Origin: a virus
Taxonomy: Duplodnaviria > Heunggongvirae > Uroviricota > Caudoviricetes
IMG/VR virus record: IMGVR_UViG_3300020045_008999
Span: 256,001-320,000 of that record
DNA: 64,000 nucleotides
Direction: 5' to 3' (one strand)
The notes under the pieces were generated by a model. It had not been told where the DNA came from. It searched no databases and saw only the letters and a list, made by a program, of their open reading frames with translations. The position numbers and the translations under genes are program-made. The first letter of the stretch is position 1; each line of letters starts with the position of its first letter. Below are positions 4,435 to 27,487 of the stretch, piece by piece.

Positions 4435-5004
4435 ATGGAAAAATTAACCAAAGGTGTCAAGCTTATTTTATTGATAAATATTGCTGCTTTTATTTTTAGT
4501 TCGATATTCTCACAGTTCACCGCTGATTATTTAGCGTTGCATATTTATAGTAGTCCAAAATTTTATTTATGGGAATTCATCACTTCACTTTTTATACATG
4601 GTGGTTTAATTCATTTATTATTTAATATGATGACTTTAGTATTCTTAGGCCCATATGTTGAAAAATATTATGGTACAACACGTTTTTATATAATTTATAT
4701 CATCATGGGTATTATAGCGGGCCTATTACAAATATCATTGATGTCAATTGACATTCCACTTGTTGGGGCATCCGGATCATTATTTGGCGTACTTACATTA
4801 TATGTAATACAAAATTACAATACTAAAATGTTTTTAATGTTCATACCGATCGGTATCAAAGCCAAATATATACTAATTGGTTTAATTGCGATTGAACTCT
4901 ATTCAGCATTCTTTGTTTCTGATAACGTTGGACATTTTGCACATTTAGGTGGGGCAGCATCTGGTTTATTAATACATAAATATTATCATGGTGTACGTAA
5001 TTAA
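4435..5004 (+). CDS. Rhomboid family intramembrane serine protease
   Basis: Multiple TM helices, HLLFNM, catalytic GASG and HLGG motifs. Confidence 0.95.
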   Translation: MEKLTKGVKLILLINIAAFIFSSIFSQFTADYLALHIYSSPKFYLWEFITSLFIHGGLIHLLFNMMTLVFLGPYVEKYYGTTRFYIIYIIMGIIAGLLQISLMSIDIPLVGASGSLFGVLTLYVIQNYNTKMFLMFIPIGIKAKYILIGLIAIELYSAFFVSDNVGHFAHLGGAASGLLIHKYYHGVRN

Positions 5005-6630: not shown

Positions 6631-6674
6631 GAGTGTATAATATTTATCTCTTATATATAAAAATTCTTGCTTAG

Positions 6675-7172
6675 TTGGGTTTTTTTGATTATTTTTGTTT
6701 AAATTATTTTTATATGGATAAAGTTAATTGTGTTTACCGACTTGGTTTATTTTTCAGTGAATATGTAGGAATGGATAATATTAAATTTCATTCACCAGAT
6801 TACCTATATGAAAAAATGGAAGTATTATTTAACATACCAGAGATGATATTAACACCATATGAACACGAATGGGGTTGTCATGAATTTATTATTAAATACG
6901 AAGGCACATGGGGGCCTATTACTGATACCTGTATTACTCGATTTATACTTTTTATATTCCATGCACGTGCACCTACTAGTGCAGAGAATTATATCAACAA
7001 CTTCGAAAAGTTTATATGTCCAATTCAAGATATAGTTTTAACTAATAACTATTTCCCAATGCATTTCAAAACTCTCAATTCTATTAATGAAATAATAGAA
7101 TTGTTAGAAAGATCTTCTGCCCACAAAAATATTATCCGATCATTATCAATAAAAAAACTTTTATCAAAATAA
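6675..7172 (+). CDS. Hypothetical protein with C-terminal RxxxIxxLL motif (probable start ATG 6714)
   Basis: ORF ends RSLSIKKLLSK. Confidence 0.7.
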   Translation: MGFFDYFCLNYFYMDKVNCVYRLGLFFSEYVGMDNIKFHSPDYLYEKMEVLFNIPEMILTPYEHEWGCHEFIIKYEGTWGPITDTCITRFILFIFHARAPTSAENYINNFEKFICPIQDIVLTNNYFPMHFKTLNSINEIIELLERSSAHKNIIRSLSIKKLLSK

Positions 7173-7466
7173 TTCGCTGGCTTGCTTAGTGGCTGATTAA
7201 AGACTAAAAATAACCAACACATACTAATCATTAAATTAAGAAAATACAAATGAATCAAGAAAATACAAATGAGCCATTAAGCAAGACTGCTGTTATAAGT
7301 CGGTTTTTATACGAAATGGCTGAAAAACATAATATTTCGGTAGATGGTATAGTAATAGGAATTGAAGAAATACATCCTAAAAGAGTTGATGGTAAAGTGA
7401 AATTACAGGTTATGAATTTAGATTTTCATAATTTAGAAGAGTTTTTGACTGAAAATGGCTTATGAA
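7173..7466 (-). mobile_element. Integron-cassette-like insertion 1 (attC-like hairpin 7171-7298 plus one ORF; slightly decayed)
   Basis: Arms CTTGCTTAGTGGCT (7181-7194) and AGCCATTAAGCAAG (7272-7285); GTTATAAG at 7292; near-complementary GGCTTATGAAC at 7457-7467. Confidence 0.65.
7250..7465 (+). CDS. Cassette-borne hypothetical protein
   Basis: ATG inside the hairpin loop; residues EPLSKTAVISR encoded by the right arm and GTT site. Confidence 0.75.
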   Translation: MNQENTNEPLSKTAVISRFLYEMAEKHNISVDGIVIGIEEIHPKRVDGKVKLQVMNLDFHNLEEFLTENGL

Positions 7467-7480
7467 CATACCAATTATCA

Positions 7481-26457: not shown

Positions 26458-26468
26458 TGGGATTTTTT
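26439..26468 (+). terminator. Intrinsic terminator
   Basis: AAAAAGTCCCATT-AAGT-AGTGGGATTTTTT. Confidence 0.7.
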
Positions 26469-26521
26469 GGTTAAGTCGTTTTTTATACATATATTTGTAC
26501 TATTAATCAAAAATATTTATT

Positions 26522-26785: not shown

Positions 26786-26868
26786 TGATTAAACGTTTGT
26801 CGCCTGTGGTAGTTGGGAAAATAAAGCCCAAAACACCGAATAATTACTAATCATAAAAACACAAAACA

Positions 26869-27072
26869 ATGTCAAAGTTAAAGACCGAAACCCAATTACC
26901 ACAAGCAATTGTTAGCCGTTCGGTTGATGATTTTGATTATACGTGTTTCAAATGTAAAACTTATAAAACAAATAATTTAGATAATTTATTCGACCATCGC
27001 CAATATTGTAAAATAAAAACAAATAAAATAAAAAAAATATGGAATCAATTAATGCAAATGCTATCTGTTTAG
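26869..27072 (+). CDS. Cassette-borne small C2H/C zinc-finger-like protein
   Basis: ATG in hairpin loop; YTCFKC...H...C. Confidence 0.65.
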   Translation: MSKLKTETQLPQAIVSRSVDDFDYTCFKCKTYKTNNLDNLFDHRQYCKIKTNKIKKIWNQLMQMLSV

Positions 27073-27248
27073 ATTGTGGAACTGCAAAAGAAAATCCTGA
27101 AAATGGTTTTTGTATGAATGGTCACGATAACTGGCTTGAAGAAATGGATAAAATAGAAAGATTTTCAGAGGCTTCAATTAAATTTAATAAAACAACTTCT
27201 GAATTGATGTTTCATATTCAGCAGAATGTTTCTATAACTGAAGGCTAA
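27039..27248 (+). CDS. Cassette-borne small Zn-ribbon protein
   Basis: ICLDC...FCMNGH; stop TAA lies within GGCTAAC. Confidence 0.7.
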   Translation: MESINANAICLDCGTAKENPENGFCMNGHDNWLEEMDKIERFSEASIKFNKTTSELMFHIQQNVSITEG

Positions 27249-27487
27249 CAATATACTTTGGTAGAAGCTATGGTAATTATTGAACAACCAAATAGCGATG
27301 GGTATATGTTCTTATAAAAGAATGTAATTTACCAGTAGACATTGTAAAAGCGTTGGTTAAAAATTATTCGGTATTTCTGGCCCCGATGAGTCCGGATAGT
27401 TGGGATTTTAAAATTTATAATAGATTGGGTGTTATAGAAAATAAAAATTGGTCACCAATTAATGAATGTACAATAAAAACAAATTGA
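27249..27487 (+). pseudogene. Remainder of gene interrupted by cassette 2 (first three codons at 26785-26793), with a later frameshift near 27303-27308
   Basis: ATGATTAAA + CAATATACTTTG reads MIKQYTLVEAMVIIEQPNSDGY; removing 2 nt from TATATG continues VLIKECNLPVDIVKALV to TGA 27487. Confidence 0.6.

Follow-up and report, generated by a model that had tools for sequence, protein, structure and literature searches.

Putative integron-like cassettes of a phage genome whose genes are predicted to start inside their own recombination site

The window analyzed here is a 64,000-nucleotide stretch of phage DNA, bases 256,001–320,000 of a viral record of 596,785 bp that is 98% complete, and its G+C content is ~31%. 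It contains two hairpins, each with the ATG of a small gene in its loop (table 1). The arms of hairpin 1 are 23 nt in length, match at 83%, and are separated by 69 nt, and those of hairpin 2 are 16 nt in length, match at 88%, and are separated by 73 nt. Mismatches between arms of both hairpins place a G opposite a T on the + strand, which marks this strand as the folding strand. Centroid folds of the + strand consist of a 13–14-bp stem around an open, A-rich loop that is unpaired. In both window ORFs, the right arm and the GTT triplet encode residues 8–15, and the two loops share an exact 10-mer located 18 and 14 nt 5′ of the ATGs of hairpins 1 and 2, respectively. A sequence-only reading had described the hairpins, the loop ATGs, the common 10-mer, and the arm-encoded N-termini, and all were found at the positions it gave. 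Comparison of the whole window to Rfam RNA families yielded nothing at gathering score.

Table 1. Features of the two hairpin elements of the window and promoter-like patterns upstream of them
Feature	Position	Strand	Basis or remark
Bacteroidota-type promoter pattern (TTG...TAnnTTTG)	6667..6697	+	One gene 5′ of cassette 1
TAAT: stop of upstream gene and degenerate 5′ triplet (AAT, not AAC) of hairpin 1	7170..7173	+	Comparison to canonical L048 homologue
Left arm of hairpin 1	7176..7198	+	Inverted repeat, fold
Loop of hairpin 1	7199..7267	+	Holds 10-mer (7222–7231), 19-nt tandem duplication (7234–7252/7253–7271), and ATG 7250
Right arm of hairpin 1, also coding	7268..7290	+	Inverted repeat
R′ box of hairpin 1; GTT is Val15	7292..7299	+	Sequence, translation
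Cassette 1 gene, 71 aa; alternative in-frame ATG at 7316	7250..7465	+	ORF from loop ATG
Inverse R box of cassette 1; one G more than in homologous cassette	7457..7467	+	Comparison to L048
Bacteroidota-type promoter pattern (TTG, 20 nt, TAnnTTTG)	26467..26497	+	One gene 5′ of cassette 2
AAC triplet at 5′ edge of hairpin 2; candidate crossover point and left boundary of cassette 2	26792..26794	+	Similarity to L011 copy begins exactly there; family-wide homology breakpoints at AAC
Left arm (L″) of hairpin 2	26802..26817	+	Inverted repeat, fold, covarying stem
Loop of hairpin 2, A-rich, 73 nt	26818..26890	+	Holds 10-mer (26845–26854), SD-less leader, and ATG 26869
Right arm (L′) of hairpin 2; ORF codons 8–13	26891..26906	+	Inverted repeat, translation
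R′ box and extension of hairpin 2; GTT is Val15	26911..26925	+	Complementary to end of cassette 2
Cassette 2 gene 1, 67 aa, Cys/His-rich	26869..27072	+	ORF from loop ATG
Cassette 2 gene 2, 69 aa; stop TAA within terminal inverse box	27039..27248	+	ORF
Inverse R box with final AAC; right end of cassette 2	27236..27249	+	Score of 20 vs. 14 for control

The first gene of cassette 2 has no in-frame ATG ahead of codon 62, and inspection by eye revealed no in-frame GTG or TTG. The two ORFs of this cassette (26869–27248) overlap by 34 nt, and both encode small products with CxxC plus H/C patterns, possibly zinc ribbons. Downstream of its terminal box there is no hairpin and no significant fold. Cassette 1 looks slightly decayed relative to its canonical homologue, with AAT in place of AAC and an extra G in the terminal box. 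The tandem duplication in its loop brings ATG 7250 into frame with the GTT, and the ATG of the second copy, at 7269, is followed by a stop after three codons. The duplication is old, as indicated by the presence of the same head peptide in other metagenomes.

The two hairpins are members of a family of at least 83, with 11 in the phage genome (11–12 by profile) and 72 in 27 other viral contigs. Members in the phage genome were found with a profile made from nine copies of the same genome; scans based on perfect stems and duplex energy failed to separate real sites from controls. Members elsewhere were found with a degenerate right-arm pattern. It led to the retrieval of 32 IMG/VR loci, of which 25 were positive and, with the addition of L011 and L012, 27 of 34 loci account for the 72 hairpins. 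In these 27 contigs, hairpins form co-oriented arrays with a spacing of 300–1,300 nt. Those of the phage genome are mostly solo, with one three-site array at 585.4–586.7 kb. In this array (genome positions 585,466–586,715; L007:1466–2715), the first gene has a loop start, the second hairpin lacks an ATG and is followed by a gene that begins ~37 nt past the GTT, and the third has an eight-codon head that stops six codons past the Val, with the real gene 39 nt past the GTT. An exact 27-mer of the head had no match in viral contigs and the hairpin had none in GenBank phages by blastn. In bacterial genomes, 38 of 40 matches to the degenerate pattern lacked a family hairpin by profile, consistent with chance, and the only true members found by this search are in Flavobacterium fluviatile TAPY14 and one short contig of a MAG. 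The contig of the cultured strain TAPY14 (L088:4345–4880) has two hairpins with gene ATGs, at 4798 and 4416, inside them, and the strain could serve as a host for experiments.

Across the family, structure is conserved more than sequence, and members have the R″-L″...L′-R′ architecture of attC sites with almost invariant AAC and GTT triplets. An alignment of 46 diverse members gives a consensus stem of 17 pairs, and compensatory double changes are seen in 16 of them. Paired cells make up 88.6% of the stem, compared to 58.6% in shuffled alignments and 36–46% when the partner column is slid, and the covariation score of 0.718 (0.194 in shuffles) was reached by none of 500 shuffles. One stem pair is a G·T in 44 of 46 sequences, and its retention marks the + strand as the folding strand. 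Strand asymmetry is also seen in the boxes beyond the stem, as detailed below, and the better-folding strand is the + strand, which is the mRNA sense, in 56 hairpins versus 24. From the family census, stem covariation, complementary cassette ends, breakpoints at the AAC, recombinase-linked arrays, and identical heads on unrelated bodies, we interpret both elements of the window as putative integron-like mobile gene cassettes.

The location of the start codon varies across the family. In 37 of 83 hairpins, there is a loop start, an in-frame ATG located 8–19 codons before the GTT with at least 40 codons beyond it. In the remaining 46, the ATG of the gene is mostly 18–53 nt after the GTT, and a loop start is thus predicted to be a frequent but optional property. 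Many genes with a loop start have no other nearby ATG. In methyltransferase bodies with a loop start, the first conserved motif is seven residues past the Val, and in L048, the head and R′ box together form a lipoprotein signal peptide. ATG 7316 of cassette 1 is a possible second start, in a context like the leaders of cassettes that lack a loop start. None of 33 distinct loop leaders has an SD-like motif. Position −3 is an A in 73% of leaders and positions −11 to −13 are A in 79–94%, and G is rare, at 0–15% per position from −25 to −1. These features match the rules of initiation in F. johnsoniae, and the leaders have the properties of an SD-less initiation region of Bacteroidota, which are absence of an SD, an A at −3, and low structure (PMC6847099). 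The site probably acts as a translation module that carries a ribosome landing zone, a start codon, and the first 14 codons.

The loop might additionally hold an autonomous promoter, with an ACTAAT block as a −10-like element, such that a cassette would be transcribed wherever it inserts. ACTAAT is present in 24 of 37 start-bearing hairpins and 11 of 46 others, and either ACTAAT or ACTAAA is present in 30 of 37 and 20 of 46, mostly 17–18 nt before the ATG. However, this spacing is dominated by one subfamily and therefore reflects relatedness. Other findings also speak against a promoter in the loop. Neither loop has a sigma-70-type site on the + strand, and counts for the region equal those of shuffles. 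The Bacteroidota-type TAnnTTTG is in just 3 of 83 cores. ACTAAT is not a general upstream motif of the phage (30 occurrences vs. 11 in the control), unlike TATATA, ATATAT, and TAATAT, which between −40 and −7 of the 761 ORFs of the whole genome are enriched ∼10-fold (185 of 761 vs. 16 in a coding control) and may represent a promoter or leader motif used phage-wide. All nine of nine cassette loci in the phage genome are co-oriented with both neighbors and set directly after the upstream stop codon, and promoter patterns of the host type are located one gene upstream of both window cassettes. Hence a promoter in the loop is quite unlikely. The claim of the sequence-only reading that both window cassettes are co-oriented with their flanking genes holds, as both flanking genes are on the same strand.

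The shared 10-mer had been put forward as a conserved motif of the loops. Instead, it is confined to close relatives, in 4 of 37 start-bearing hairpins and 0 of 46 others, and only its ACTAAT/ACTAAA core is enriched. Nor is the 10-mer enriched genome-wide (3 + 3 copies, equal to the reversed control). Because three of its six genomic copies occupy homologous places in the loops of three family members, the match between the window loops is attributed to homology and not to chance. An ORF on the minus strand that would start at the complement of the 10-mer was rejected, given the poor conservation of the motif's CAT portion. The site had also been predicted to initiate both translation and, possibly, transcription. 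Loop ATGs, SD-less leaders, and heads favor the first function, but the absence from the loops of any sigma-70-type or Bacteroidota-type promoter, the co-orientation of all nine loci, and the host-type promoters one gene upstream speak against the second. We suggest that the site is probably a translation module dependent on read-through transcription, rather than a transcription module.

The two ends of each body were compared, using the 14 nt from the GTT of one hairpin and the last 14 nt up to and including the AAC of the following hairpin. The termini of a body are complementary at an average of 10.7 of 14 positions, versus 6.8 (SD of 1.6) for random pairs and 7.0 for boxes of the same hairpin. 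In 21 of 46 box pairs, complementarity extends to 13 of 14 positions and the sole mismatch is always a G·T, on the + strand and at the same position (21 of 21). A second class of box pairs has a one-base bulge. Cassette 2 is in the bulged class; its start box at 26911–26925 matches 27236–27249. Such boxes would pair only in a circularized unit, which is a hallmark of integron cassettes.

When cores are at least 90% identical, the downstream box is similar in 46% of pairs and the upstream box in 0%. For one core type, all 11 of 11 contigs have the same beginning of the R′ box and then an almost invariant leader of ∼34 nt, ahead of different genes. At L033:4489–4660 and ten other loci, this leader ends in AACGT directly 5′ of the ATG, and the conserved unit extends past the GTT. 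Copies of the same cassette in different contigs are 93–96% identical from the AAC onward and 46–57% identical before it. In solo cassettes of the phage genome, a hairpin is at the upstream end, and the downstream end is a bare inverse box not followed by another hairpin. Together, the correlation between cores and boxes, the invariant leader, the breakpoints at AAC, and the solo cassettes indicate that a cassette consists of AAC, hairpin, GTTA, gene or genes, and inverse box. The proposal of the sequence-only reading that the gene lies inside its own site, in reverse relative to classical cassettes, is therefore upheld by the core and box correlation, breakpoints, and solo cassettes. Crossover is predicted to occur at the AAC upstream of the hairpin, with the folded + strand cut between AA and C on its 5′ side. 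A cut at this position, 5′ of the hairpin, is the geometry of the folded attC bottom strand. Neither megablast against phage records nor searches of viral contigs with two flanking proteins uncovered an empty site or a near-identical relative for the window cassettes. Their mobility is predicted from the family, in which the same cassette can be behind different neighbors in other contigs.

A classical phase would have crossover between G and TT and assign the hairpin to the upstream cassette, so that bodies without a start borrow the ribosome site, ATG, and 14 codons of the preceding site. It would account for identical heads of 14–15 aa on unrelated proteins that diverge directly past the Val codon of the GTT, as well as for out-of-frame or early-terminating heads that precede genes with their own ATG. 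In L011 and L012, moreover, each body runs directly into a hairpin with an inverse box that fits the beginning of the same body. But solo cassettes have their hairpin upstream and none after the inverse box, and homology between copies begins at the upstream AAC, not at the GTT. In addition, core type never tracks the upstream box and is instead followed, in the type described above, by one R′ box start and leader. We consider the classical phase very unlikely. Because both models of phase yield the same circle, occasional use of the opposite strand could explain swaps of heads.

Arrays adjoin a recombinase. In three Logan contigs (L048–L050), a homologue of the cassette 1 gene (71% identical) occupies cassette three of a four-cassette array. 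This array closes with an AAC, 56 nt ahead of a co-oriented tyrosine recombinase of 265 aa (4351–5148 in L048). The order is the same in a complete viral contig of 53 kb, where the enzyme is 266 aa. These array-linked enzymes score best against XerA/XerC and lack the extra domain of about 40 aa found in IntI integrases, as residues ∼217–259 of IntI4 (2a3v; ∼43 residues) have no counterpart in the alignment. Matches to PF00589 are absent from three of five complete array-bearing phage contigs. In the 597-kb phage genome, the search for a cognate recombinase returned nothing beyond a 210-aa frame, the sole match to PF00589 (37.6 bits; 29.7 bits with the XerA model). This frame (G000:C1:108065–108697; L010) weakly matches Xer-type tyrosine recombinases over their C-terminal half and adjoins no cassette, and tblastn with it found no match in the array loci. 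As with single attC sites or CALINs (attC clusters without an integrase), no integrase is within reach of these sites; the two window sites are solo, and the nearest recombinase-like frame is at 108 kb. Cassettes of the phage would be orphans that are movable only with an enzyme provided in trans, or fossils. Hairpin ends of the IS200/IS605 type were rejected because there is one hairpin per unit, boxes are complementary, and a tyrosine recombinase is beside the arrays. A leader that acts on RNA only, as a translational operator or processing site of paralogous small genes without DNA recombination, would suit a start codon in the loop and better folding of the mRNA-sense strand, but is highly improbable given body termini that pair only in circular form, arrays that abut a tyrosine recombinase, the sharp breakpoint of cassettes found behind different neighbors, and unrelated downstream proteins.

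Solo integron-like cassettes, each with a gene that runs out of its own site and can start in the loop, are in our assessment the likely explanation. The layout is an AAC, a short spacer, a covarying stem of 13–16 bp around an A-rich loop of ∼70 nt, a spacer, and GTTA with ∼10 additional nt. Beyond this box are one or two small genes and an inverse GTTA box that ends in AAC. The folding strand, which tolerates G·T wobbles, is the sense strand of the gene and the equivalent of the attC bottom strand. Given a cut between AA and C 5′ of the hairpin, the mobile unit would be the hairpin and its downstream gene. Since this gene exits from its own site, the loop holds the SD-less, G-poor start region and ATG, and the right arm and GTT are read as codons 8–15. 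The loop ATG is predicted to be used for initiation, and the closing stem may keep the start region open in any context. Transcription would be supplied by the surrounding operon, and cassettes would be moved by the 265-aa Xer-like recombinase, absent from this phage.

In textbook cassettes, a promoterless gene is followed by its site. Like classical integrons (class 1 and Vibrio chromosomal), the family has a structure-defined imperfect palindrome with AAC/GTT triplets, cassette starts that complement the inverse core and form a full site in the circle, and arrays that adjoin a tyrosine recombinase transcribed away from the array. As in Vibrio repeats, cores of sites are homogeneous over unrelated cargo. 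Unlike in classical integrons, genes of the phage family are on the folding strand, exit their own site, and point toward the recombinase, rather than being expressed from a Pc at attI/intI and followed by their own attC; expression of the Pc type is impossible in this arrangement. The loop is long (∼70 nt), conserved, and often coding, a conserved G·T wobble is in place of the characterized extrahelical bases (a putative equivalence), and the 265-aa enzyme is Xer-like and without the IntI insert. Among T4-type phages, PeSL cassettes have a stem-loop and an expression signal 5′ of small variable genes, for which gene shuffling has been proposed. PeSLs bear an early promoter, and homologous recombination is their presumed route of movement. 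They are not known to have AAC/GTT boxes, complementary cassette ends, or a tyrosine recombinase.

In reverse integrons of Treponema denticola, each gene still precedes its attC, and the integrase is 5′ of the array. What these integrons (mentioned in 10.1101/2020.05.09.085589) share with the arrays described here is a common orientation of the recombinase and the cassette genes. Integrons are regarded as rare in Bacteroidota (PMC9024848), and those reported so far in phages are a few complete ones and clusters of attC sites (PMC9892861). Phage CALINs, including that of Polaribacter phage P12002L, have attC cassettes that often encode methyltransferases in virulent phages, and one of their attC sites was recombined by IntI1 (PMC9892861). 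The cassettes studied here are similarly of attC type and in phages, and P12002L infects a member of Flavobacteriia; the family model found zero members in P12002L, which has published attC sites. The text of PMC9892861 mentions neither starts within sites nor an enzyme of the Xer type.

A text search of the literature yielded no account of a cassette variant of reversed polarity with a start borne by its site. Among described systems, ORF-11 and ORF-18 of attI1 come closest to a start carried by the site (PMC8876359). In class 1 integrons, attI1 carries an initiation region and short ORFs across the crossover region (ORF-11, ORF-17, and ORF-18), which boost expression of cassettes without start signals of their own, and N-terminal fusions are known (PMC8876359). 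The analogy has limits. ORFs of attI1 are in the platform site, serve the first cassette only, and act mainly by translational coupling, whereas here, each cassette has the start in its own attC-like site and the protein carries the head as an in-frame fusion. If correct, our interpretation identifies a large family in phages of the Bacteroidota type and at least one cultured Flavobacterium genome that combines opposite polarity, a simpler Xer-like enzyme, and a site that codes and initiates. A recombination site would thereby be able to tolerate, or even exploit, protein coding. The family also offers a testable model of context-independent translation in bacteria that do without an SD, and a ready explanation for orphan N-terminal peptides common to unrelated phage proteins.

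Such heads are modular in both cassettes. Three other, unrelated bodies carry exactly the head of cassette 1, whose own body is found with five different heads. Metagenome proteins P0002 and P0003 have unrelated bodies and share the exact head of cassette 2, and similarity of the DNA (∼93% by eye) extends exactly from AAC to GTTAGC. Crossover at AAC alone does not explain heads shared by unrelated bodies. They could arise from homogenization of site cores, as in Vibrio repeats, or from occasional recombination on the other strand. One tentative and rather unlikely extension is that the hairpin is a portable module for gene starts, in which recombination of the less-favored strand between G and TT, within the Val codon, occasionally grafts the ribosome landing zone, ATG, and 14-codon head of one site, in frame, onto unrelated bodies. 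The system would then not only capture genes but also build N-terminal fusions, and could cause start-less fragments to be expressed. At L012:1980–2090, a copy of the cassette 2 head has its left arm and ACTAAT block replaced such that no hairpin is possible, with start and head intact, and a head can thus outlive the recombination site.
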